Origin: an uncultured Gammaproteobacteria bacterium
Lineage (GTDB): Bacteria > Patescibacteriota > Microgenomatia > JALYQM01
Assembly (NCBI GenBank): GCA_964525495.1
Contig: CAZGHS010000001.1
Span: 102,263 to 166,262, forward strand
DNA length: 64,000 nt
Direction of reading: 5' to 3'
The position numbers were made by a program, and so were the translations under genes. Under the pieces are notes generated by a model, which searched no databases, was not told where the DNA came from, and worked only from the letters and a program-made list of their open reading frames with translations. This document shows, one piece after another, positions 13,604 to 61,238 of the stretch. How positions within the stretch are numbered: the stretch's first letter is position 1; every line of letters starts with the position of its first letter.

Positions 13604-14095
13604 TTACCTAACTGTCACTCCATGCGTATACGCTATGGCCAGTGCATCCGCAGCGTCATCAGGCTTGGGAATTTCTTTCAATGCCAGCAACATTTGCACC
13701 ATTCTTTGCATCTGCGCTTTCTCTGCTCGTCCGTATCCAGTCAACGCAACCTTTACCTGCAATGGTGTGTATTCAAAAAAAGGAACTTTAAAATGCTGTG
13801 CAGAAAGCAGTATCACGCCTCTCGCCATGCCCACAATCAATGCAGTCGAAACATTTTTATTAAAGAACAGCTCTTCAACCACAAAAGCATCGGGCTTATG
13901 CTCCCGCAACAACTCAGTCAAACCTGTATAAAGAAGCTCTAATCGCTGCTCCAAAGGTACACCTGCCTCAGTATAAATACACCCATAATCCTTCATTACC
14001 AGTTCTTGCCCTACTTTTCCAGGCTTACCCCGCTCCACCACTCCCCAACCAGTAATCGCAATCCCAGGATCAATTCCTAAAATAATCATAGACAA
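13604..14095 (-). CDS. ruvC: crossover junction endodeoxyribonuclease RuvC
   Basis: 163 aa; [16 protein letters not shown] RNaseH-fold start and catalytic acidic residues; completes ruvC-ruvA-ruvB operon. Confidence 0.9.
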
Positions 14096-14146
14096 AACAT
14101 AGCACGTTTCTTGAAAGTTCTCAAATATTAAATAGACCTATAGTAT

Positions 14147-14175
14147 TTGACTTTTCAGGCTAAATGTGGTATTAT
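14147..14175 (+). promoter_or_regulatory. strong sigma70-like promoter TTGACT-N17-(TG)TATTAT
   Basis: ttgact at 14147-14152, 17-nt spacer, extended -10 tgg-tattat at 14167-14175; reads into a 320-nt non-coding leader. Confidence 0.5.
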
Positions 14176-14399
14176 AGAAGATGCTCAGTTGAGTTTTGAG
14201 CTCGTTTTCGAGCTTATAAGCTTAAGTGAGCGTGAGCTCAAAAGGTTCACTAGATCTTTAAAAGAAAGACAATAGCAGTGTATGAGTTGAGCCCGAGCTC
14301 AGCCGACGCACAAAATCTACGTCTTTCTGAACCCATACAGCTCACCCCATACTTTTTTCGCCATTTATTTTTCTGATCTACCTTTACCGCACTGTCTGT

Positions 14400-14451
14400 G
14401 ACTGCGGAATAGTGGAAATAACTTCATTGTTGTTCCTACTGTTCCGCAGTC
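14400..14451 (+). promoter_or_regulatory. RNA hairpin (10-bp stem gactgcggaa/ttccgcagtc, 32-nt loop) in the 5' leader of the small secreted-protein gene
   Basis: perfect inverted repeat read directly from sequence; lies about 50 nt upstream of the GGAGG SD of ORF 14507. Confidence 0.45.
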
Positions 14452-14506
14452 TGCAGAAATATCAGCGATGTGCTGAATACGCAGAGCGGTAATGTGGAGG
14501 TGTCAA

Positions 14507-14899
14507 ATGACACGTATCTCTTCTTTTCTCGCGCTCATCCTCGCCGCAGCAATCCTTACCAGCAATCCGACACCAGTTTTGGCTGACGGAGATTTCTCCG
14601 GAACCGAATCGGTCACGTTTGTTGGAGCGGAGAACGTTGTGGTGAACTGTAAGAAAAGTAACTGGGCAAGGATAACTGTCACGTACAACTCCTTTCCCGG
14701 GGACAATCTTGTCATCTCTGCAAGCGATGCTCGACCAAGCGACAACGCGAACCGAACCTATTACTCCATCATCATCGATGAGGAGCATTCAGGGAAGGGT
14801 AGTCGCAGCGTCGATATTCAACTCACCGATGAGCCAACCTACTTCTGGGCAACGCTCGGCAGCGCACAGGACATCAAGTCCCTACGATGCGCTAACTAG
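14507..14899 (+). CDS. small secreted protein (signal peptide, 2 Cys), GC-richer than surroundings
   Basis: Start chosen at Met preceded by ggagg-N7; MTRISSFLALILAAAILTSNPTPVLADG signal peptide; about 100-aa mature beta-rich domain; local GC about 50% vs about 40% genome. Confidence 0.5.
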   Translation: MTRISSFLALILAAAILTSNPTPVLADGDFSGTESVTFVGAENVVVNCKKSNWARITVTYNSFPGDNLVISASDARPSDNANRTYYSIIIDEEHSGKGSRSVDIQLTDEPTYFWATLGSAQDIKSLRCAN

Positions 14900-14905
14900 C
14901 TAACT

Positions 14906-15028
14906 CAGACAATCAGAAAGCCAATGGCGAAACAGACCTTCGATACATAGAATATATTTAAACCTCTGCTTGCAGTGGTGGCGATATCCTATATGTATTT
15001 ATTGTCTGGCCATTGTCTTTCTGATTGT
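14906..15028. repeat. 20-bp inverted repeat (acaatcagaaagccaatggc / gccattgtctttctgattgt, 1 mismatch) with about 75-nt spacer
   Basis: seen directly; sits between the small secreted-protein gene and the HTH-protein gene; spacer itself contains a direct near-repeat (cgatacatagaatatattt / cgatatcctatatgtattt). Confidence 0.5.
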
Positions 15029-15106
15029 TATACAGTAAACGATTCTGTATCTGACGAAGGCGAATTGAAGCCGAAACAATCAAGCTAAGTATGTTATATT
15101 CTCTCC

Positions 15107-15700
15107 ATGCATTACGAAGAATTAGCTGACACATTAGGTCTCGATCTCCACGGACGCATCAATTATCATGACGCACTTGAACGCACCACAATGCTCTTAG
15201 TCCAAGAAGCCCAACAAGGTACATGCCCTCATACTCTCCGTCGTGTCCTAGATCTTTTACCCGCGGCACATACTTTCCAGCAATTCGATCCTCTAGAGCG
15301 TCAAAGACTTCGATCAGTAAGTGTCACTGAAACTAAAGCAACTTTGCTTTACGATTCACTTCTTCGCCGAGTACATGTAGGAAAACTGACTAATCGGATT
15401 GAATTAAATCCCGATCAAACAGAGGTACTGAATGCAGTATTTCAGTTTCCAGGTGAACCATTCTTTTCTGGAGACATAGCAGAAATTCTATACGGCACTA
15501 CAAAAGGAAGATGTATGACGCTAGCGACCACACGAATCCAAGATCTAGCACAAACTATTGAAAAGCCTGATCAATTCTTCTTTATTACTGACATTGAATC
15601 ATACCTATTTGGGGATCCAGATAATTTCTGGAAAAGTCGTATCACGATCCCCGACCGACGTCGAATTTACCAAACCAAACAAAAACCTATAGTAATTTGA
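15107..15700 (+). CDS. hypothetical protein with C-terminal LuxR/sigma-70-region-4-like helix-turn-helix
   Basis: 197 aa; C-terminal DQTEVLNAVFQFPGEPFFSGDIAEILYGTTKGRCMTLATTRIQDLAQ fits the LT-REV-L...S-EIA..L.-S..TV pattern; N-terminal part unrecognised. Confidence 0.45.
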   Translation: MHYEELADTLGLDLHGRINYHDALERTTMLLVQEAQQGTCPHTLRRVLDLLPAAHTFQQFDPLERQRLRSVSVTETKATLLYDSLLRRVHVGKLTNRIELNPDQTEVLNAVFQFPGEPFFSGDIAEILYGTTKGRCMTLATTRIQDLAQTIEKPDQFFFITDIESYLFGDPDNFWKSRITIPDRRRIYQTKQKPIVI

Positions 15701-15902
15701 TTTTAACCTCAAAGCATGCTCTAATAATAGAATATTGAGCGGAAACTAGTCTTACGAGTCTATACTTCACCTCAATTTTTTAATATCCTGTACGTTTACA
15801 TCTTGTGGAATAACTCACTTAGCTACACTCAAAGCATCTCATAATATGGGGCATTTCGAGTGTTGCTAAGTGCAACTTTTTAGAAAAAAAGGGGGGGCTA
15901 TC

Positions 15903-16121
15903 ATGGAGGCAAGTTCAATAACTGTCGGACAAGAGCTACGCTACAACGCGGGTTTTGGACCATGGAATGTCCAGGGAATTGTACGAGTAACCGAGGCCAA
16001 AGCCAACCATAGTGTTATCAAGGTCCAAATTATCAGTATGTCAAAGGACCGCGGGGAAAAAGAATTTTATAAGCCAGGCAAGGTCATAGATGCGGTGGCG
16101 AGCGAACTCTTCCCCAAATAA
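15903..16121 (+). CDS. hypothetical small protein (72 aa)
   Basis: Start taken at MEASS preceded by aggggggg SD-like run; no family recognised. Confidence 0.35.
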   Translation: MEASSITVGQELRYNAGFGPWNVQGIVRVTEAKANHSVIKVQIISMSKDRGEKEFYKPGKVIDAVASELFPK

Positions 16122-16257
16122 TCCACAAGATAACATCTTACAGGACGGCACTAAGGAAAAAGTGTAAAGTGCATGAAGCAGCAGAGTTGTATTGCGAAAG
16201 CGATATACTTTGAGACTTTTATGTAACTACAACCACACCTTAGTGCCTTTTCCGTAT

Positions 16258-17226
16258 TTACCCCAACAATCCACTAGCACCCTTTTCCAGCTCTTCGTTC
16301 ACTCTCTGAATATTCCTCACCCCATATTCCTCAAGCCATATCCGCAAACCATCTTCCCCACCAGTTCCAAACGCAGCAATTCCATCCTGCCATGTCGCCC
16401 GTCCACACAACACTCCGTTATATTTCACACCGCCTTCTCTCACCAATGCAAGAGATTCTAAAAACGAATCAATAGTCACACCAGCACTCAGATAAATAAA
16501 CGGCAAATGTGTCGCTGTTGCAGTATTTTTAATATGTTGCAGTGCTTCAGCTCGAGTATACGCATACTCTTCACCAGCAACACTACTCCCTTGCACATAT
16601 TTTATATTTATAGGTATCTCAACTTTCAAAACATCGATACCATATCGCGCATCAGAGAACTCTTTCATATACGCAGCAACAATTTCAGGCTTTCGCTTAG
16701 CAAATTCCAAGCTCTTCTCGTCCCCTATAGTGTCAGAATATGACACCACTTCAAAAAAGAACGGCATCTCTTCCCGTTTACACTCCTCACCCACTCGTGC
16801 AACAAAATGCCGTTTCTGGTTATTAATCTCATCAGTATCAAACGGATCATAATAAACCAGCAGCTTCACCGCATCAGCACCTTCTTCTCGAAGCTTAGCC
16901 ACAGAGTATCCATCCAACAAATCTGGCAACCGACCTGCCATAGTCGCATCATATCCAGTTTTTTCGTACGCAAGCAACACACCAGCAGTTTCAGATTTCT
17001 TCTCCAAAGCAGGCAGACCATACTGTGAATCTAGCAACACAGCACTCGCATACGGAGTCAAAACCTCGACACACACAGATTTAAACAATGAAATCTCATC
17101 AGCAGTAGCCTCTCGTCCTAAAGACTTAGTCAAAGCCTTACCAAGAGAGCCGCGTTGGTCTATAGCCATTGCAGCCACAACACCATTATCATTTGTTAAT
17201 TTTTGTAGTCGTTCTTTTTTTGTCAT
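16258..17226 (-). CDS. class I aldolase of the tagatose-1,6-bisphosphate aldolase (LacD) family
   Basis: 322 aa; N-terminus MTKKERLQKLTNDNGVVAAMAIDQRGSL ... ELTPYASAVLLDSQYGLPA closely parallels LacD. Confidence 0.75.
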   Translation of the reverse strand: MTKKERLQKLTNDNGVVAAMAIDQRGSLGKALTKSLGREATADEISLFKSVCVEVLTPYASAVLLDSQYGLPALEKKSETAGVLLAYEKTGYDATMAGRLPDLLDGYSVAKLREEGADAVKLLVYYDPFDTDEINNQKRHFVARVGEECKREEMPFFFEVVSYSDTIGDEKSLEFAKRKPEIVAAYMKEFSDARYGIDVLKVEIPINIKYVQGSSVAGEEYAYTRAEALQHIKNTATATHLPFIYLSAGVTIDSFLESLALVREGGVKYNGVLCGRATWQDGIAAFGTGGEDGLRIWLEEYGVRNIQRVNEELEKGASGLLG

Positions 17227-17238
17227 AAGTATATTGAA

Positions 17239-19027: not shown

Positions 19028-20374
19028 ATGCCAGTGACAACATCAAGAGAATTCTCTAAACTAAGAGTAATGCAAAAAATTATTCTCACCACTGTTCCTA
19101 CGGGACTCGGCCATATTCGTGTCACCAAAGCTCTAGCGAAAGGTCTGCCTGCAAATATCAACCCGACCATACTCGGAGTCCAAGACGAAACTACAGCCAT
19201 GCTGTATCGCATCATCAGTACCAATTTTTATCTACGTTGGTTACTCGAGTTCACTCAGACCAATCCGATTGTTGAAAAAACTTCGACAAATATTCTCAAC
19301 TTCATCCAAACTTCAGATACAAAAAGTACTGAAATAATGCTCAGAGAATTTATCGGTGAGGATCCAGAGACTAAAATAATAATCGTCTCCACCCACGCCT
19401 TTATTGCCCAAAAAATTCAAAAGATAATAAACAGCAAAGTGATTCCAAACCCCATATTTCACGCAGTCATCATCACGGATGACTCGCCACAACGTTTCTG
19501 GATGGTCGACGCAGATATTATCTTTGCTCCCAGTCACTTCACTAAAAATACTCTAGAAAAACTTTACAAAAAAGATAACCGCAAGGCGCCCCTCATCAAA
19601 GTAAACCCATATCCCATCAATCCAGAGTTCTGCGAAAAGATCAGACCAGAAGTGCTCTACAACAAAATCGAACAGTTGCATCCAGAAAATCCACAAAAAG
19701 CTCGCATCTGCATCCCTGTCAGTGGAGCAGCGGTCCAATTGGATTATTACACCATCCTCATCGAAGAACTTCTCGCAGAAGATACCCGCAATCCGCACCG
19801 CGAGTTTACATTCTCAATAGTCACCAGAGAGGGAAACTACACACAACCGTTTATCAGTCATTTCCGTGAAGAGCTTGAGGTTTCATTCCATATCGGTGCT
19901 AACGACGAACAAACGGTCGAACTCTACGACCAGCTCTATCATCAACCAAACCCACCCGCGATCGAGATCACGAAACCATCAGAACAAGCGTTCAAAGCCC
20001 TCACTACTCCCGACACGGTCGGTGGACCGATACTGCTTCTTACCGACCCTGTCGGCCGACAAGAATACGATAATCTTAATTTCCTTGAGCGCCACAGTCT
20101 CATGCCTTCACCCCATGAACAATTAGAAATACTCGAAGCTTTCGCAACAGGCAACAAAGAAAAACTCGAAAATATGAGACAAATGGCACACACATGGCGC
20201 TGCTTACGCCTACCATCAGACCCCATCCAAGCATCACAATTCATAATAAAATGTTTTAAGCACGGAATATTTATAGCCATGCAAGACTACAGAAGATACA
20301 CCCACACCGACGAACTCGCACCCGACGGCGTCAAGCAGATATGGGAGACTGTATTACTTTCAAAACCGCTGTAG
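19028..20374 (+). CDS. hypothetical protein (possible GT-B-like glycosyltransferase)
   Basis: 448 aa (alternative start 19067 MQKIIL); N-terminal TTVPTGLGHIRVTKALAKGL resembles the G-rich loop of MurG/MGDG-synthase-type GT-B enzymes; weak. Confidence 0.4.
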   Translation: MPVTTSREFSKLRVMQKIILTTVPTGLGHIRVTKALAKGLPANINPTILGVQDETTAMLYRIISTNFYLRWLLEFTQTNPIVEKTSTNILNFIQTSDTKSTEIMLREFIGEDPETKIIIVSTHAFIAQKIQKIINSKVIPNPIFHAVIITDDSPQRFWMVDADIIFAPSHFTKNTLEKLYKKDNRKAPLIKVNPYPINPEFCEKIRPEVLYNKIEQLHPENPQKARICIPVSGAAVQLDYYTILIEELLAEDTRNPHREFTFSIVTREGNYTQPFISHFREELEVSFHIGANDEQTVELYDQLYHQPNPPAIEITKPSEQAFKALTTPDTVGGPILLLTDPVGRQEYDNLNFLERHSLMPSPHEQLEILEAFATGNKEKLENMRQMAHTWRCLRLPSDPIQASQFIIKCFKHGIFIAMQDYRRYTHTDELAPDGVKQIWETVLLSKPL

Positions 20375-20375
20375 A

Positions 20376-20430
20376 TGATATTTTAAGAAAACATTTGCGA
20401 TTAGGATGTTTTTAAAAAATATCATCAAAG
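20376..20430. terminator. AT-rich nested inverted repeat between convergent genes (bidirectional terminator candidate)
   Basis: gatattttaag ... aaacat-N11-atgttt ... ttaaaaaatatc between stop of 19028..20374(+) and stop of 20445..21647(-). Confidence 0.4.
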
Positions 20431-20444
20431 AAGGTTTTGGATAA

Positions 20445-21647
20445 TTATACTGTAAACTGTCCCTTCTCATAGATAACCTTCTCACTCCCATCAGGCAACA
20501 CCGCTGTCACAGTCCTATCCTCGATCGAAAACACATCGGTATGCACAGCACTATCATTAAAGCCCATTTCATCCCACTTTTCCTTTGGGGTCGAAGCTAC
20601 TTTACCCACATACGCATCTTTATACGCCATACCAAAAGCCACATGCGTATTCCCGTACTCTCCACCATAGTTCTCATCATACAAAGTCTGCCCCATGAAC
20701 CGATCGATACGAGACATTCGTTTATCCGTCAAAGAAAATTCACCAATCTTATTCGCGTTAACCACAGATATCATATCTTTCAGTAGTTGCTCATTCTCAT
20801 ACGCACTCGCCGAAACAACTTCTCCGTCTTTAAACGTCACATCAATATCACTCACTTTATTCCCATATCTAAAAAGCGGTACATTAAATTTAATTCGTCC
20901 ATTTGTCCCTCTCCAATCAGGTGAAGTAAACACTTCAAACGAAGGGATATTTCGTCCACTTCCTCCCAACCACTGGCGCGTAGATCCAAGCTGCACCCAC
21001 AAATCCACATTTTCAGACTTCACATGCACTTTCTCAATCTTCATATCATTCAAAGTCTTCTTCAACCGCTCCTGCTCGTGAAATATCTCTTTCCATTTAG
21101 CTATCGGATCGTCCAAATCTAAGTAACAAGCTTTAATTATCTGACTCCAATACTCCTCATGACTCATCCCTGCATCCTTCGCCTCAAGCTCAGTACCATA
21201 ACTGGCCAAGGTCCACGTAAGTTTCCTTTCTCCTTCTTTCTCAAATCGCCAATCCTGATACGGTTTCATAGCTTTACTATGCGTCATTAATTTTTTACTA
21301 TCCACGCCCTGCAGCTCATATTTATCCGCTTCTGACAAAATCCGCATTGTATGGTCAGCCTGATCCACGATCCCGCGATAATATTTATCTGCAAAAAAAG
21401 TTAATTGCTCCTCGCTTGCCAATTCATAAAACTCACGTGCACCTACATCATCAAAGTAATTCATAAATATAGCATGACCACCGGCTTCCAACACGGCTCG
21501 TCGCAAAAACCGCACCATAGCCTTTGCAGATTCAGGCACTGCAATTACAACCACCTCACCTTTTTTAATTCCCTCTCCGCCACCCAGTGCGAACTTAATC
21601 AGCAAGTCAGAATACTTTTTCAAAACATCATCAGATGGAATATACAT
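20445..21647 (-). CDS. aminopeptidase, M29 family (AmpS/PepS-like)
   Basis: 400 aa; full-length collinearity with thermophilic-metalloprotease M29 aminopeptidases including C-terminal NTHVAFG ... NDSAVHTDV. Confidence 0.85.
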   Translation of the reverse strand: MYIPSDDVLKKYSDLLIKFALGGGEGIKKGEVVVIAVPESAKAMVRFLRRAVLEAGGHAIFMNYFDDVGAREFYELASEEQLTFFADKYYRGIVDQADHTMRILSEADKYELQGVDSKKLMTHSKAMKPYQDWRFEKEGERKLTWTLASYGTELEAKDAGMSHEEYWSQIIKACYLDLDDPIAKWKEIFHEQERLKKTLNDMKIEKVHVKSENVDLWVQLGSTRQWLGGSGRNIPSFEVFTSPDWRGTNGRIKFNVPLFRYGNKVSDIDVTFKDGEVVSASAYENEQLLKDMISVVNANKIGEFSLTDKRMSRIDRFMGQTLYDENYGGEYGNTHVAFGMAYKDAYVGKVASTPKEKWDEMGFNDSAVHTDVFSIEDRTVTAVLPDGSEKVIYEKGQFTV

Positions 21648-21699: not shown

Positions 21700-22689
21700 A
21701 TGAATTCAATGAGCAAAACAGAGCACCCTCTCAGCTGGCACGCAATAGCGCGCGTAGTTATAACAATATCCGCAATTTATCTCGCCTGGCAGCTTTACGG
21801 CACCTTACTAATGATATTCGTATCAATCATGCTCGCCGCCGCTTTCTATCCTATCGTTATGAAGCTAGCCGAGAAGCGGATTTCTATAACTCTTTCATCA
21901 ATATTTGTAGTTCTTACGCTCATATTGCCGATCATAATTATTCTCTTCACGATTCTTCCTGGAATCGTTCAGCAATTCCCAGAAATAGTTAGAACAGTCG
22001 ACAGAGCAGTCAAAGAATCCACCGTCCTTCCACCAACCTTGCGCGATATTGACCTCACTCAATACGCACAAAATGCTGCAAGTTACGTAGTCCAATCAAC
22101 ATCAAAAATCACAAACTTCGTGGGAACGTTCTTTACGATTATATTCTTAACCCTATATTTCCTAATCGACTCCAAACGTCTTAATGAACTCATCCTTTCC
22201 ATAATTCCAGAGGGCAGTCGCACCAAAGCAGAAAAGCTCACGGAAGAGCTCACTAAAATTAACGGTCAATATATTCGAGGGAATCTTCTTATCTCACTAG
22301 TCTGCGGAATATCTATATTCATTGGACTATTACTTATCGGCGTCCCTTATGCTGCTCCACTCGCTCTCTTTGCCGCCCTTGTTGATATGCTTCCACTGAT
22401 CGGCGCAATCATCGGTGCGATCCCAGCTATCATCATCGCGTTCGCAGTCAACCCCACAGCTGGAGTTCTGACACTCCTACTTTTCATCATCTATCAACAA
22501 ATTGAAAACAATATTCTCTCACCTAATATCTATAACAAAGCTCTTAACCTCTCTCCAGCACTTAGCTTCATTGCCGTACTGATAGGTGGATCAATAGCAG
22601 GTATAGTCGGCGCATTTATAGCTCTTCCGATTGCAGCAAGCATTCCAACAATAGTTAAATATGTACAAAATTATGATGAGGTTAAGTAA
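21700..22689 (+). CDS. AI-2E family transporter (PerM/UPF0118)
   Basis: 329 aa, 8 TM; conserved ALVDMLPLIGAIIGAIPAII segment. Confidence 0.8.
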   Translation: MNSMSKTEHPLSWHAIARVVITISAIYLAWQLYGTLLMIFVSIMLAAAFYPIVMKLAEKRISITLSSIFVVLTLILPIIIILFTILPGIVQQFPEIVRTVDRAVKESTVLPPTLRDIDLTQYAQNAASYVVQSTSKITNFVGTFFTIIFLTLYFLIDSKRLNELILSIIPEGSRTKAEKLTEELTKINGQYIRGNLLISLVCGISIFIGLLLIGVPYAAPLALFAALVDMLPLIGAIIGAIPAIIIAFAVNPTAGVLTLLLFIIYQQIENNILSPNIYNKALNLSPALSFIAVLIGGSIAGIVGAFIALPIAASIPTIVKYVQNYDEVK

Positions 22690-24539: not shown

Positions 24540-24677
24540 GGTACAAAATGAGTTAAATAAAGAGTCGTGTAATCATGCGACCTTAATACTTGCAAGACAT
24601 GCAGCACAGCGCCGTCTGAAAGAACCTATTGAGCAAAATTCAAACCAAAATCTGCTTCGTTAAGGTATAATAGACCT

Positions 24678-43619: not shown

Positions 43620-43737
43620 CAAAAGCATAATGAGCGTGATAAAAATAGCTATCATGAATTATAGTTTTTCAAACATTTTTGTCCTTCTTATTACCCACTT
43701 CTAAGGCGGGTCGGCAAAATGTATGAAAAAAGTCCAA

Positions 43738-43767
43738 GACCCGCACACAAGCGGGTTTTTTCGTTTT
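43738..43767 (+). terminator. rho-independent terminator
   Basis: acccgc-acacaa-gcgggt hairpin followed by tttttcgtttt, about 120 nt after stop of 42021..43619. Confidence 0.65.
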
Positions 43768-43888
43768 AGACGGTATTAGGTTCAAAACATAATACTCACT
43801 AAGGCGAAAAACAAGCCGCACGAGCGGATGGAGGAACGACCGAATGTCGGATTCTGTAAGAATTTCACAACAATACGGAGGGAATCCC

Positions 43889-44047
43889 ATGCAACTGATC
43901 GCAAAACTCTGCCTACTACTCATCGTCGCTGGCATCCGTCTCGAAGACGGGTACAACGACCATTGGCAGGACAAGAAGCCCAAATCTGCAACAAAAACAG
44001 CATCGACTTCCAAACAGACTACAAAAACCAAAGGCAAAGGCAAGTAG
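43889..44047 (+). CDS. hypothetical small membrane protein (52 aa) with Lys/Thr-rich tail
   Basis: start at MQLIAK preceded by ggaggga; one TM (LCLLLIVAGI). Confidence 0.35.
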   Translation: MQLIAKLCLLLIVAGIRLEDGYNDHWQDKKPKSATKTASTSKQTTKTKGKGK

Positions 44048-44092
44048 CCCAAACCAATTCACGGAGGGTCGCTCCTCTCATATTCTTTGATA

Positions 44093-44146
44093 GTTTCACC
44101 GCCAAGACGTTTTGTCTTTGCAGTATTTCCGCATTGGCGGTGAAAC
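44093..44146. repeat. perfect 13-bp inverted repeat gtttcaccgccaa / ttggcggtgaaac with 28-nt spacer
   Basis: read directly; intergenic between convergent small genes; no flanking T-run. Confidence 0.6.
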
Positions 44147-44296
44147 ATATCTTATCGTGCAACGCACTCGCAGGGACAACACTTTGTAAAATATATCCAA
44201 GAAAAACGATTAAGTTTTTCCCACGTATATTTATACATACCTAACTCATCCCTGCAGTGCAAAAGATTTATATATTTAAAACGTAAACAAAGAACC

Positions 44297-55645: not shown

Positions 55646-55674
55646 AAAAAAAACGCCTCCACAATGTGGAAGCG
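55646..55674 (-). terminator. hairpin + U8 immediately 5' of the ATG of 54314..55645; stem contains the GGAGG SD (attenuator/terminator-like)
   Basis: minus strand reads cgcttccacattgtggaggcg-tttttttt-ATG. Confidence 0.5.
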
Positions 55675-55753
55675 TCCAGATTAAAATCCGACAACAATAA
55701 AAATAAGACTATAAGCTCTACAAAAAAGTAGGTCTTTCATAAATAGGAAGGAG

Positions 55754-55782
55754 ATAATAGCACAAACAGACTTTAGTGTCAA
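55754..55782 (-). promoter_or_regulatory. consensus sigma70 promoter TTGACA-N17-TATTAT on minus strand
   Basis: rc of 55777-55782 = ttgaca; rc of 55754-55759 = tattat; about 100 nt upstream of ATG 55645. Confidence 0.5.
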
Positions 55783-55820
55783 TACTATAAGACATCATCT
55801 CTCCTTTTACTAATTACAAT

Positions 55821-55849
55821 AAAAAAATACCTACTCCATGGAGTAGGTA
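55821..55849 (-). terminator. rho-independent terminator (22-nt perfect palindrome tacctactccatggagtaggta + T7 on minus strand)
   Basis: read directly; downstream of minus-strand gene 55976..56263. Confidence 0.6.
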
Positions 55850-55975
55850 TTAAACTCAAAAACATTAATTCCAGCCATATAAAGCTGGTCGCACATGTGC
55901 ATTCTAATTCGTTTAAATATATATAACATTTCTAAGCACAGTATAATCTTAACCAAAGCATCACGCAATCTTAAT

Positions 55976-56263
55976 TTATTTTATAGGCTCATATAAACCC
56001 ACTGCATGATCATTAAAATTTCGATTTGCAGGCTGCCCCAGTTTCCATCCTTGTTCCACTAAATCCCACAAATCTTGATTTGGGTCTGCATCACCTGGCT
56101 CATACGGCCATGAACCATCTGGAATATACAAACTATCCGACCACCATTTATAGCCTTTTTCTAAAGCATTCACCGGGGTTAATGTAGTATCAATAACTAT
56201 TTTTTTCATAAATTTAGAGGTAAGGTGATATACCTCAAGGAGTAAGTATATCACCTTAAACAA
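55976..56263 (-). CDS. hypothetical small protein
   Basis: 95 aa; Trp-rich C-terminus; no family. Confidence 0.4.
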   Translation of the reverse strand: MFKVIYLLLEVYHLTSKFMKKIVIDTTLTPVNALEKGYKWWSDSLYIPDGSWPYEPGDADPNQDLWDLVEQGWKLGQPANRNFNDHAVGLYEPIK

Positions 56264-56289
56264 ACAATAAGTCGATCGCTTATCTTATT

Positions 56290-56595
56290 CTAATCGTCAT
56301 CTCGTGTCCTTCGTGCTTTCGGGCCTGCGGATCCTGAACGGTGTGTTTTCGGATCATAAAAATCATGTTGCCCTGAGTGCTCACCCCGGATATATTTCCG
56401 ATTCACTTGTCCATCTCGTTCCCGATAGTTTGTATGCACGCTCCGTCGTGACTCCTCCCTCTCATTCCGTCGGCGCTGTCGCTCCTCTTCGATCTCCCGA
56501 TCCACATACGACTTGAACAATTCGAACTCCTGGTAATCACCATAGTGCGACCTGCCCTTGTACGAACGTTGCTTCGGCCGGTACTCGAGTCCCAT
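56290..56595 (-). CDS. hypothetical highly charged Arg/Glu-rich protein
   Basis: 101 aa low-complexity (EEERQRRRNEREESRR). Confidence 0.4.
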   Translation of the reverse strand: MGLEYRPKQRSYKGRSHYGDYQEFELFKSYVDREIEEERQRRRNEREESRRSVHTNYRERDGQVNRKYIRGEHSGQHDFYDPKTHRSGSAGPKARRTRDDD

Positions 56596-56784
56596 GGACT
56601 TCCTCCGTTCGATTAGATTAAGGTGCGGATACGACTCTAGAGATTTAGTGTAAGAAAGAAATAAACATCAATTGTTTATACTTTCAAATGACTAAATTCT
56701 ATGAGTACTTATATTCAATCTAAAGGAGGAAATGAATGACAAAGCTGTCAGGATTTCTGCCAATATCGGCAAGTGAAAATATGA

Positions 56785-58761: not shown

Positions 58762-58955
58762 ATATTGACAACAATAAAAAAGGTAGTAAACTTAACTAAA
58801 ACGTGGAGTCTATCCCAATAGACAATTTGATTATAAAAATCAAAACGTTGCATGCGTTAAAGCAAAATTATAGCATAAACATGTCAACCTAGCCAGTTGT
58901 AAAAACGGCAAATAAGATCGCAAATGCGATGAAACAAGGTGGTACCACGACTAAG

Positions 58956-59010
58956 CTCGTCCTTGTAGAGAAAAGAGATTACTCTTTTGTCTGCAGCGAC
59001 GAGTTTTTTT
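58956..59010 (+). terminator. long imperfect hairpin (outer ctcgtc/gacgag, inner 11-bp AU-rich stem) followed by T7, ending 13 nt before ATG 59024
   Basis: read directly; no plus-strand gene upstream for 1.5 kb, so likely 3' end of a small RNA or an attenuating leader. Confidence 0.45.
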
Positions 59011-59023
59011 GTACAATAAAAAT

Positions 59024-59557
59024 ATGATAAACATAATATTCGAGTCTCATAACACCACAGTAGACAACGAAAACAATCGTGCGTCAGGTCATTATGATGT
59101 TGAACTCTCAGAAAAAGGCAAACAGCAATCCAGAGCTTTAGGGGAAAGATATAAGGGCACCCAAATTGACGCAATCTTCTGCTCTGATATGCAACGCTCA
59201 TACAAAACAGCCGAAGGCGCTTTTCCTCACAGAGATATTCCCACCTTCCGAGATGAGCGTCTTCGCGAATGTGATTATGGCGATATGACTCGAGCACCTA
59301 AAGACCAGGTTGAAGGCGAGCGCATGCAACGTATCATCACGCCTTATCCCAACGGTGAAAGCCTTCAACAACGAACACAGAAAATGAAATCATTTTTAGA
59401 TGAAATAAAAGAACAGTATGATGGGAAGATCATCATGATAATCGGTCACCGTGCAACTCGCTACGCACTCGAGCACTATTTAAATAATAAATCATTAGAA
59501 CAAGCAATCTCAGAGCCCAATCAATGGCAACCAGGCTGGAAGTATTATTTACAGTAA
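59024..59557 (+). CDS. histidine phosphatase family protein
   Basis: start at ATG 59024 (ORF call began at TTG 59009); IIFESHNT ... IDAIFCSDMQRSYKTAE ... IIMIIGHRATR pattern of PGAM-like phosphatases. Confidence 0.6.
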   Translation: MINIIFESHNTTVDNENNRASGHYDVELSEKGKQQSRALGERYKGTQIDAIFCSDMQRSYKTAEGAFPHRDIPTFRDERLRECDYGDMTRAPKDQVEGERMQRIITPYPNGESLQQRTQKMKSFLDEIKEQYDGKIIMIIGHRATRYALEHYLNNKSLEQAISEPNQWQPGWKYYLQ

Positions 59558-59801: not shown

Positions 59802-61238
59802 ATGGCACAAACATTCGAAAAAAAAGGCGTCACCAAAAAGTCAGAAAACATCTCTGACTGGTATATCGACGTCATTACCAAATCTGGCATGGCCGACTAC
59901 TCACCTGTTAAGGGATGTATCGTCTACCGCCCGCTCTCCTACGCTATCTGGGAAAACATCCAGCACTTCATGAATGCAGGCATGAAAGCCATGGACGTCG
60001 AGAACTGTTACTTCCCTCTTTTTATTCCAGAATCGTTTCTAAAAAAAGAAGCAAGCCATGTCGAAGGCTTTGCTCCAGAACTCGCAGTAGTCACTATAGC
60101 AGGTGGCGAAGAGCTCGAAGAAAAATTAGTTGTCCGTCCAACATCCGAAACCATCATGTACACCATGTACAGCAAGTGGATCCAGTCTCACCGTGATCTC
60201 CCACTCAAACTCAACCAATGGAATAACGTCGTCCGATGGGAAAAGCGCACCTATCCATTCATCCGCGGAGCAGAGTTCCTCTGGCAAGAAGCACACACAG
60301 CGCATGCCACACATGAGGAATGCTGGCAGCAAGTGCTCGACGCTCTCGATCTCTATGCACGCACATACGAAGAACTCATGGCACTTCCAGTTATTAAGGG
60401 TCTCAAATCTCAATCTGAGAAATTTGCAGGCGCGGTCAACACCACAACCTGCGAAAACATCATGCCAGACGGTAAAGCTCTCCAGTCATGTACATCACAC
60501 GATCTCGGACAAAACTTTTCGAAAGCCTTTGATGTTATGTTCCAAGACAAAGAAGGTCAAAACCAATACGTCCACCAAACCAGCTTTGGCTATTCCACTC
60601 GCTCTCTCGGCGGACTCGTCATGGTTCATGGCGATGATCAGGGGCTCGTCCTCCCACCTCGCGTCGCACCAACTCAGGTAGTGATCATTCCAATCGGACA
60701 AGAAAACGAAGTATTAAAAGCTGCAGAAAATATCAAACTCGCACTCGAACAAAACTTTATCAGAGCTAAACTCGATGTTCGCTCAGAGTACTCACTCGGT
60801 TTCAAACGCAATGAACACGAACTCAAAGGGACACCTGTACGACTAGAAATTGGACAAAAAGAACTCGAGTCAGGGATGGTTTCAGTATCAATTCGCCACA
60901 ATTCTCAAAAGGAACAAACACCAATCGAATCAATTAGTACATACATGCCAAACCTACTGACCATTATTCACAACGATATGTTCGAAAAAGCTAAAAAAAT
61001 GCAGCATGATCTCACATCAGTTGCAGACACTTACGATCAATTCAAACAAATCATGGAAACCAAAAAGGGATTTATCTATGCTCACTGGTGCGAAAATGCA
61101 GAATGCGAAGCCAAAATCAAAGAAGAAACCAAGGCAAACACACGATGCTTACCCTTCGACCAAGTAGGAGAGAAAGGTTCATGCATCTATTGTGGCAAAC
61201 CATCAAACCACAAATGGCTCTTTGCACAAGCATATTAA
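59802..61238 (+). CDS. proS: proline--tRNA ligase, archaeal/eukaryotic-type
   Basis: 478 aa; class II motifs, no bacterial-type insertion/editing domain, C-terminal zinc-binding CxxC ... CxYC extension typical of archaeal-like ProRS. Confidence 0.9.
   Translation: MAQTFEKKGVTKKSENISDWYIDVITKSGMADYSPVKGCIVYRPLSYAIWENIQHFMNAGMKAMDVENCYFPLFIPESFLKKEASHVEGFAPELAVVTIAGGEELEEKLVVRPTSETIMYTMYSKWIQSHRDLPLKLNQWNNVVRWEKRTYPFIRGAEFLWQEAHTAHATHEECWQQVLDALDLYARTYEELMALPVIKGLKSQSEKFAGAVNTTTCENIMPDGKALQSCTSHDLGQNFSKAFDVMFQDKEGQNQYVHQTSFGYSTRSLGGLVMVHGDDQGLVLPPRVAPTQVVIIPIGQENEVLKAAENIKLALEQNFIRAKLDVRSEYSLGFKRNEHELKGTPVRLEIGQKELESGMVSVSIRHNSQKEQTPIESISTYMPNLLTIIHNDMFEKAKKMQHDLTSVADTYDQFKQIMETKKGFIYAHWCENAECEAKIKEETKANTRCLPFDQVGEKGSCIYCGKPSNHKWLFAQAY

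Follow-up and report, generated by a model that had tools for sequence, protein, structure and literature searches.

What kind of element lies between ruvC and the neighbouring aldolase gene is the question raised by the DNA studied here, a stretch of 64,000 nucleotides (nt) of contig CAZGHS010000001.1 (called the window below, and the source of all positions unless another contig is named). The islet in question (14096-16257) lies between ruvC and a DeoC/LacD-family aldolase gene and contains three plus-strand open reading frames (ORF1, ORF2 and ORF3), the first of them preceded by a leader of about 325 nt. The original prediction took it for a small acquired cassette coding for a secreted effector and its regulator. 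We propose with moderate confidence that it is a lineage-specific accessory gene cluster, made of three real but orphan genes with highly structured untranslated regions (UTRs) and lodged in a variable slot between the LOG gene and ruvC.

The islet occupies a variable slot

The genes around the islet are read in the opposite direction. ruvB, ruvA, ruvC (13604-14089, Pfam RuvC E 4e-48), the aldolase gene (16258-17226, coding for 322 amino acids (aa), assigned by Pfam), LOG and rpe all lie on the minus strand, and rpiB, which adjoins rpe, is placed there by synteny with the relative described below. The islet is also loosely packed: its spacers measure 411, 207, 202 and 136 nt versus a window median of 34 nt, and about 44% of its length is non-coding.

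The gene content of the slot was compared with that of one relative, with no outgroup, namely the metagenome contig L086 (JGI Ga0163144_10025229). Its gene order, rpiB-rpe-LOG-slot-ruvC-ruvA-ruvB, is that of the window, and its flanking proteins are overall 47-83% identical to those encoded in the window (RuvA 69%, RuvC 76%, RuvB 83%, LOG 73%, M29 peptidase 82%). DNA similarity extends to 14109, shortly upstream of the ruvC -10 box, and is found again from the LOG stop codon onwards; no counterpart of ORF1, ORF2, ORF3 or the leader was found in L086. Since L086 keeps the flanks and differs inside them, the LOG-ruvC interval is a variable slot. The variable segment runs from 14110 to 17236 and includes the aldolase gene, which lies outside the DNA shared with L086. 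The opposite-strand block that had been proposed was thus recovered as a lineage-specific unit, absent from the only available relative, but its limits had been drawn too narrowly.

In the same slot, L086 carries a DeoC-family aldolase of 249 aa (L086 7213-7962), which matched the 322-aa enzyme of the window with a BLASTP E of 0.89. Judging from the two sequences, an aldolase has been exchanged at this position for a distant paralog of ordinary composition. Between its aldolase gene and ruvC, L086 has a minus-strand frame of about 260 codons (L086 7965-8757), with an ATG start, an in-frame TAA at codon 12 and no Pfam match, which could correspond to a pseudogene, a sequencing error or a recoding event. 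The idea that this frame is a diverged ORF2 with a winged helix-turn-helix-like motif was rejected (BLASTP E 0.22, with 28% of shuffles reaching the Smith-Waterman score).

Eighty ruvC loci of GTDB species representatives were also inspected, all from Clostridia and Patescibacteria metagenome-assembled genomes, with RuvC at most 60% identical. Neither the aldolase nor any of the three ORFs was found beside ruvC in these loci, which had only the ruvCAB arrangement in common. At the other extreme, the islet region is present at 100% identity in other assemblies, all other copies being identical. A tRNA gene or a match to an integrase or phage family was not found in the islet, nor were bacteriocin, immunity, transporter or mobility genes or an insertion sequence (IS) element found around it. 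Flanking repeats were at chance level, and none was convincing. Direct repeats of 27 nt (at 14074 and 16110), examined as att-like ends of an island, were discarded, as their identity is only 70% and many chance families in the same output are comparable.

A long and highly structured leader precedes ORF1

As had been predicted, a near-consensus sigma-70-type promoter with an extended -10 TG (TTGACT-17-TATTAT) is found by sequence match on the plus strand at 14147-14175, and transcription of ORF1 is predicted to start from it at about 14181-14183. Five sites scoring at least 10 out of 12 and carrying the TG occur in 64 kb, this one included, versus 1.8 expected; the remaining TG-extended sites, and some of those without TG, are sensibly placed ahead of genes. 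Back to back with the islet promoter, on the minus strand, lies a promoter-like site for ruvCAB (14096-14124, TTGAGA-17-TATGTT with TG), from which the first transcription unit of the cluster would diverge.

RNA structure was scanned at 13-18 kb with shuffled controls and over the whole 64 kb with a GC regression. The non-coding stretches of the islet were the strongest plus-strand structure outliers of the window, and its coding parts were ordinary. For the leader (14176-14510) the predicted folding energy is -133 kcal/mol (z -9.7), which none of 100 shuffles reached. Among 60 genes, the region upstream of ORF1 has the lowest minimum free energy (-71.7 kcal/mol, the next lowest being -52.3 kcal/mol).

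The predicted fold consists of three domains. D1 (14183-14231), a 49-nt hairpin of 21 bp, begins 7-8 nt past the -10 box and would form the very 5' end of the transcript; it folds at -27.8 kcal/mol on the plus strand (z -7.4) and at -13.2 kcal/mol on the minus strand. D2 (14232-14345) is a long irregular hairpin of 114 nt that includes GAGCTC palindromes and a AGAAAGAC/GTCTTTCT stem, with -36.6 kcal/mol on the plus strand, -39.1 kcal/mol on the minus strand and a z of -5.4. After D2 comes a pyrimidine- and U-rich linker, CCCAUACUUUUUUCGCCAUUUAUUUUUCUGA (14346-14376), which is unpaired in the predicted fold. D3 (14377-14498), a branched domain of 122 nt, is the most structured 120-nt window in 64 kb, at -62.6 kcal/mol (z -11.6) on the plus strand and -47.9 kcal/mol on the minus strand. 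A 10-bp hairpin had been announced just before the Shine-Dalgarno (SD) sequence; there is indeed structure at this place, but it is the whole of D3, which includes a hairpin with 23-nt arms (14400-14451). The GAGCTC-rich character of the leader was confirmed, with 3 of the 14 sites of the window falling within 14198-14300, and so was its perfect 10-bp stem (14194-14203/14234-14243), which would compete with the D1 hairpin.

The start region of ORF1 is itself drawn into the fold. The first three bases of the SD sequence GGAGG (14496-14500) are taken up by the closing helix of D3 (UCUAC/GUGGA), and the plus-strand segment 14496-14509, which ends with the AUG of ORF1 (14507-14509), is mostly paired in the predicted ensemble. 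The probability of being unpaired is about 0 except at 14499 (0.95), 14505-14508 (0.99) and 14498 (0.12), and a small hairpin at 14500-14513 takes up the G of the AUG. In the gene cluster that we propose, D1 at the extreme 5' end and D2 would together shield the ORF1 mRNA from 5'-end-dependent decay, as in the slpA, ompA and aprE leaders. The single-stranded U-rich linker would then be followed by D3, whose pairing with the SD would make translation of ORF1 conditional on D3 being opened or processed.

Alternatively, the whole leader or the first 180 nt of it (D1, D2 and the U tract) might be a functional structured RNA in itself, either a new cis-acting sensor of the riboswitch or thermometer kind or a small RNA of its own, with ORF1 reached only by read-through. 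The fold is extreme and strand-specific, and the self-complementary GAGCUC repeats permit mutually exclusive pairings (14194-14203/14234-14243 versus D1). A run of six U lies behind D2, and the same structure scan also picked up a real riboregulator, the T-box-like leader at 58797-58967. However, the Rfam searches returned no family: Rfam 15 gave 0 matches over the whole window at gathering thresholds and nothing in the islet when the whole window was searched at E<=1, and the islet searched at E<=10 yielded miRNA-model noise only. The long and nearly perfect helices of the leader moreover do not resemble ligand sensors, with their several junctions and conserved loops. The U6 run (14354-14359) begins 8 nt past the D2 stem, a distance on which a canonical terminator after D2 was rejected, and the leader is missing from the sole relative. 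We regard this reading as unlikely. As to the suggestion that the leader encodes a structured RNA, its predicted fold is exceptionally stable (z -9.7) and biased to the plus strand, but no known family could be put on it. Searches for a leader homolog in L086, the 80 ruvC loci and the phage, plasmid and IMG/VR collections all came back empty. It would be improbable, in our judgement, that the 325-nt leader represents an undescribed class of cis-regulatory RNA that gates translation or stability of a secreted protein in an unsampled, Patescibacteria-like lineage, with palindromes that are perhaps mobile or variable in the population, at which assembly breaks exactly at the two ends of the 16147-16247 element (see below) would hint.

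Hairpins between the genes and their strand bias

Each of the three remaining spacers contains a hairpin on the plus strand. The first, IG2 (14908-15029), is a near-perfect hairpin of 122 nt that separates ORF1 from ORF2 and is not followed by a U tract. The inverted repeat reported after ORF1 is present in IG2, but the 20-bp size and 75-nt spacer first given for it were not reproduced: its arms are of 26 nt (14909-14934/15003-15028, 88% complementary) and its spacer is of 68 nt. IG2 and D2 have the stem sequence AGAAAGMC/GKCTTTCT in common, and perfect complementarities of 10-11 nt exist between the leader and IG2. In the proposed cluster, IG2 would define or protect the 3' end of the ORF1 message.

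The second hairpin, IG3 (15815-15873, 59 nt, z -6.4), lies upstream of ORF3 and holds one of two direct repeats. These repeats, described as near-identical in the original prediction, share the sequence CTCAAAGCAT, which is exact at 15708-15717 and, within IG3, at 15828-15837, and is found nowhere else in the 64 kb; a further copy, inverted and with a single mismatch, is found at 16205-16214.

The third, IG4 (16147-16259), abuts the aldolase stop codon. It is made of a 101-nt hairpin, GGCACUAAGG...CCUUAGUGCC (16147-16247), with a perfect 10-bp basal stem and UUUUCCGUAUUU directly behind it. It folds at -39.7 kcal/mol on the plus strand (z -6.6, 6 G-U pairs) and at -26.7 kcal/mol on the minus strand. 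The loop is far above the size of a canonical terminator, and IG4 was not listed by the terminator pattern scan, whose pattern it exceeds in loop size. From its sequence, IG4 is a probable plus-strand terminator.

The strands behave differently from one hairpin to another. D1, D3 and IG4 contain 3 to 6 G-U pairs each (3 in D1 and 6 in D3) and lose 13-15 kcal/mol of stability on the minus strand, which argues for a function as plus-strand RNA. IG2 (-50.1 kcal/mol on the plus strand versus -46.4 kcal/mol on the minus strand, z -7.8 on both) and IG3 (-24.3 versus -23.4 kcal/mol) are equally stable on both strands and could therefore be palindromes acting at the DNA level. This leads to a second alternative, in which the long hairpins in general are DNA palindromes of the MITE, REP or ERIC kind, or recombinogenic elements, and RNA folding is a by-product. 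The islet has four imperfect palindromes of 100-122 nt, and the stem common to D2 and IG2, as well as the leader-IG2 complementarities, would fit such a family. Assemblies also stumble at these places. Two independent Logan contigs (L001 and L087, SRR12762304) end at 16146 and start at 16248, so that exactly the 101-nt IG4 palindrome is omitted, although D3 and IG2 are read through by one of the two; in four other assemblies, the ENA contigs are broken within the D3 (14400-14451) and IG2 (14908-15029) hairpins. Such breaks could reflect heterogeneity of the population, but also a dropout of coverage at hairpins. Further copies of the palindromes were not found within the 64 kb, nor was a sequence family beyond the short D2/IG2 stem, and no target-site duplications are visible at the palindromes. 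The reliance of D1, D3 and IG4 on G-U pairs points to selection at the RNA level. Altogether we find a DNA-level origin of the hairpins doubtful as a general account, though to be taken seriously for part of the structure, and keep the structured UTRs of an accessory gene cluster as the explanation.

Another layout in which hairpins alternate with orphan ORFs is an integron-like cassette array without integrase (CALIN), where an attC hairpin follows each ORF and one promoter serves them all. The likeness is superficial: a strong promoter, same-strand orphan ORFs of differing composition and imperfect palindromes whose 59-122 nt fall in the size range of attC sites. The core boxes of attC sites have the consensus RYYYAAC (R'') and GTTRRRY (R'). 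No RYYYAAC...GTTRRRY pair 50-160 nt apart was found on either strand of 14000-16400, the ends of the palindromes are without GTT/AAC R boxes, and three more hairpins stand before the first ORF. No integrase is encoded nearby, and ORF2 apparently has a promoter of its own. The size range of attC sites is 57-142 nt, bounded by the R boxes (PMC2727003), and integrons and attC sites were understood as defined previously (PMC2727003, PMC4889954). The attC/CALIN reading was rejected on the core boxes, and we consider it hardly credible.

Promoters and transcription units

The idea of a single cassette served by one promoter was not supported. A -10-like TATATT (15095-15100, plus strand) ends 6 nt before the ATG of ORF2, a pattern suggesting a separate promoter for ORF2 and an mRNA without leader. 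The arrangement recurs in the window: in 10 of 60 genes, ORF2 among them, a -10-like hexamer lies 6-8 nt ahead of the start codon (for example 15095-15100, 14096-14101 and 24666-24671). An SD sequence is present in only about a third of the genes, and about two thirds, ORF2 included, are without one. These patterns suggest that leaderless mRNAs are common in this organism. The ruvC -10 box likewise has its end 6 nt ahead of the start codon (ATG at 14089), a sign that the ruvCAB transcript may be leaderless too; this box (TGnTATGTT) is kept in L086, as read from its sequence.

For ORF3, a weak promoter-like site inside the 3' end of ORF2 (15666-15693, plus strand, TTTACC-16-TATAGT, 9 out of 12) is a possible start of the transcript. 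The islet thus probably consists of three transcription units and not of one. In the organisation that we propose, the ORF1 unit would begin at the extended -10 promoter (14147-14175), ORF2 would be transcribed leaderless from its own -10 box, and ORF3, which has its own SD, would be carried on a transcript ending at the 101-nt IG4 hairpin and its U tract.

Three orphan ORFs

ORF1 (14507-14899, 130 aa) has the SD sequence GGAGG 6 nt before its ATG. ORF2 (15107-15700) codes for 197 aa, predicted to be helical and without recognisable domain, and ORF3 (15903-16121, 72 aa) is preceded by an SD-like run of seven G (15891-15897); all three are on the plus strand. For each of them, the annotated frame was the best of six by codon usage. 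When searched against 5.8 billion proteins, each retrieved only itself, and ORF2 likewise found no sequence but its own when 1.84 billion representatives were searched exhaustively with phmmer. Pfam, PHROGs, NCBIfam and PADLOC yielded nothing for the islet ORFs except a weak and non-independent match of ORF3 to Mu gpT and the phrog_371 head protein (E 0.084 and 0.006). A PDB sequence search found nothing for ORF2 or ORF3, blastn and tblastn against phage and plasmid collections and scans of IMG/VR by protein and DNA pattern gave no match, and no paralogs of ORF1, ORF2 or ORF3 exist within the window.

This orphan status has to be weighed against the poor sampling of the lineage, which has no close sampled relatives. 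RuvB, RuvC, LOG and the aldolase are also singletons at 90% identity among 15 billion proteins, and no Pfam domain was recognised in about one third of the window proteins that were scanned. As the lineage is poorly sampled, being orphans is no proof that the ORFs were acquired.

The ORFs might also be non-functional, the islet being a decaying or non-coding remnant of a lost element with chance ORFs. All three are orphans, ORF1 and ORF2 score low for codon usage, the counterpart frame of L086 has an in-frame stop at codon 12, and some 44% of the islet is non-coding. On the other hand, an open frame of 197 codons is very unlikely to arise by chance at 42% GC, and the annotated frame was the best of six each time, with ORF2 following the order GC1>GC2>GC3. 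ORF1 and ORF3 have strong SD sequences at the correct spacing, ORF2 has a -10 box suited to a leaderless message, and ORF1 begins with a textbook signal peptide. We therefore rate the remnant as very unlikely and retain three real genes.

ORF1 was predicted to encode a signal-peptide protein of raised GC, and both points were verified. Its GC content is 51.9%, and its GC content at third codon positions (GC3, 0.595) is the highest of 61 genes (z +3.2). By inspection, its N-terminus has the n-, h- and c-regions of a Sec-type signal peptide (MTR, ISSFLALILAAAIL and TSNPTPVLA), with DG following the predicted cleavage site. The hydrophobic core is of 14 residues, and V at -3 and A at -1 are as expected for signal peptidase I. 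ORF1 thus looks Sec-secreted by its sequence. The mature protein of about 103 aa has 2 Cys and is predicted to be all-beta, and ORF1 is identical (100%) in 5 other metagenome contigs. In the proposed cluster, its product would be a small Sec-secreted beta-rich protein.

Two leads as to its fold were obtained, the first of them borderline. Residues 34-118 (14606-14860) aligned with mouse T-cell receptor (TCR) V-alpha in a phmmer search of PDB sequences (E 0.033, 85 residues, 26% identity), with the NC, FPG and TYFxA landmarks aligned and the F-strand Cys replaced by Trp, and a pairwise Smith-Waterman comparison with TCR V-alpha gave a z of 10.8. The Pfam V-set domain was not matched by ORF1 even at E<=10. 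The low-confidence AlphaFold2 (AF2) model resembles jelly-roll domains. Both suggest some beta-sandwich fold, and the immunoglobulin V-like and jelly-roll leads disagree on which; neither bears on function. The structure prediction called for at the outset gave, at low confidence, an all-beta protein, but not a definite fold.

ORF2 was expected to end in a LuxR/sigma-r4-like helix-turn-helix (HTH). The 197-aa protein stands (15107-15700), but searches for LuxR/GerE, sigma-70 region 4 or any other HTH in it found none (Pfam and NCBIfam at E<=1, PDB sequences at E<=10), and it has no homolog match.

A check of GC and codon usage found deviant composition for ORF1 only: ORF2 is ordinary (GC 41.8%, GC3 0.293, which is average, with the usual GC1>GC2>GC3 pattern) and ORF3 only mildly raised. 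The GC-shifted islet is therefore true of ORF1, mildly so of ORF3 and not of ORF2.

These results also bear on the acquired cassette of the original prediction, with a secreted effector or bacteriocin, ORF2 as its HTH regulator and operator repeats. In its favour are the signal peptide and the deviant GC3 of ORF1, the clustering of repeats around ORF3 and in the promoter-proximal leader, the difference of the slot from that of L086, and three helices that the low-confidence ORF2 model shows at residues 102-150, compatible with an HTH. However, ORF2 matches no HTH, family or homolog, ORF2 and ORF3 are ordinary in composition, and the orphan status is no proof of acquisition. Bacteriocin, immunity, transporter and mobility genes, a tRNA and convincing flanking repeats are all missing from the islet and its surroundings. 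An effector cassette is in our opinion improbable, and the lineage-specific accessory cluster remains the preferred explanation.

Several observations nevertheless weigh against this explanation. The codon scores are low (ORF1 0.10 and ORF2 0.11, versus 0.24 +/- 0.07). Plus-strand genes conserved in L086, for example 19028-20374 and 21700-22689, score equally low, and the low score was for this reason dropped as a sign of foreign origin. The AF2 single-sequence models have a pLDDT of 49 for ORF1, a low confidence, and of 35 for ORF2, which makes the latter unusable. Promoter sites of at least 10 out of 12 are not enriched when the TG is not demanded (17 in the window versus about 26 in shuffles), and IG2 and IG3 are, as said, strand-symmetric in folding. 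Occlusion of the ribosome-binding site, averaged over -15 to +3, places ORF1 at rank 10 of 60 genes, which is no outlier, and the idea of an SD gate is held loosely for this reason.

Other features of the window

In the neighbourhood of the slot, L086 carries a plus-strand GIY-YIG nuclease gene (L086 9985-10296, Pfam E 1e-15) between ruvA and ruvB. The window has no such gene, and 3 nt separate its ruvA and ruvB.

The T-box-like leader mentioned above (58797-58967, plus strand) is a sub-threshold match to RF00230 (38.9 bits versus a gathering score of 93, E 4e-5) and is probably a divergent T-box below the Rfam threshold. It begins 5 nt past a promoter-like site without TG (TTGACA-16-TAAACT, 58765-58792) and lies upstream of a histidine-phosphatase gene (59009-59557) and of proS, coding for prolyl-tRNA synthetase (59802-61238). 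Its recovery by the structure scan indicates that the approach is able to find real leaders.

Strong structure is also found elsewhere. A stretch of 677 nt without credible ORF (43620-44296) is strongly structured on both strands, its sole match being a weak Phe_leader (E 0.31), and may hold an unrecognised non-coding RNA. On the minus strand, a second small cluster (55646-56784) has a structured gap of 330 nt with a TG-extended promoter-like site of 11 out of 12 (55782-55754), and two small ORFs without Pfam domain (55976-56263 and 56290-56595), the latter with 52.6% GC and highly charged. The longest inverted repeat of the window, with 34-nt arms (20361-20439), lies between the convergent genes 19028-20374 and 20445-21647 and is probably a bidirectional terminator.

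Comparison with known systems

If the proposed organisation is true, a compact genome spends an unusual amount of structured non-coding RNA on one secreted orphan protein, and the islet would be useful for the study of post-transcriptional control and of accessory-gene turnover in poorly sampled lineages. The locus opens no long-standing question, and its practical value is that of a flagged locus. An orphan cluster with highly structured UTRs in a variable slot is of a familiar kind, with no tie to a known or a demonstrably new mechanism.

Intergenic palindromes of the REP/BIME, ERIC, Correia/NEMIS and RUP types are found in mRNAs and form families of many similar copies per genome. The spacer palindromes of the islet (100-122 nt) resemble them in forming long hairpins and in coinciding with assembly breaks. 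They differ in having no second copy within 64 kb and no consensus beyond an 8-nt stem motif.

SD sequences are sequestered in the RNA thermometers ROSE and fourU, and leaders such as that of tisB offer a ribosome-standby site. The ORF1 leader is similar in that both SD and AUG are paired and a U-rich unstructured stretch lies ahead, which could be a standby site. Unlike thermometers, it has no Rfam thermometer or leader match, its occlusion is no outlier in the genome, and D3 (-62.6 kcal/mol) is far too stable for unaided melting at physiological temperatures.

Long stabilising 5' UTRs are found in highly expressed genes for secreted or surface proteins, among them E. coli ompA and B. subtilis aprE. 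In Lactobacillus slpA, a strong promoter is combined with a stabilising stem-loop in the 5' UTR (PMC10221546). The ORF1 unit has the same succession of parts as these genes, with a strong promoter, a 5'-terminal stem-loop, a strong SD, a Sec signal peptide and a 3' hairpin, a likeness read here from sequence. Its leader is much longer than that of the slpA type (about 325 nt in three domains), and the predicted fold pairs the SD, whereas the slpA fold exposes the ribosome-binding site. The ORF1 product of about 103 aa is also without similarity to S-layer or porin proteins.

Compared with genomic islets, the locus has no integrase, tRNA, IS element or clear direct repeat, and its aldolase gene has been replaced as well. 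In its general plan it is nevertheless of their kind: conserved flanks (rpiB-rpe-LOG on one side and ruvCAB on the other) enclose a content that differs between relatives, is read in the opposite orientation and includes one gene of deviant composition.

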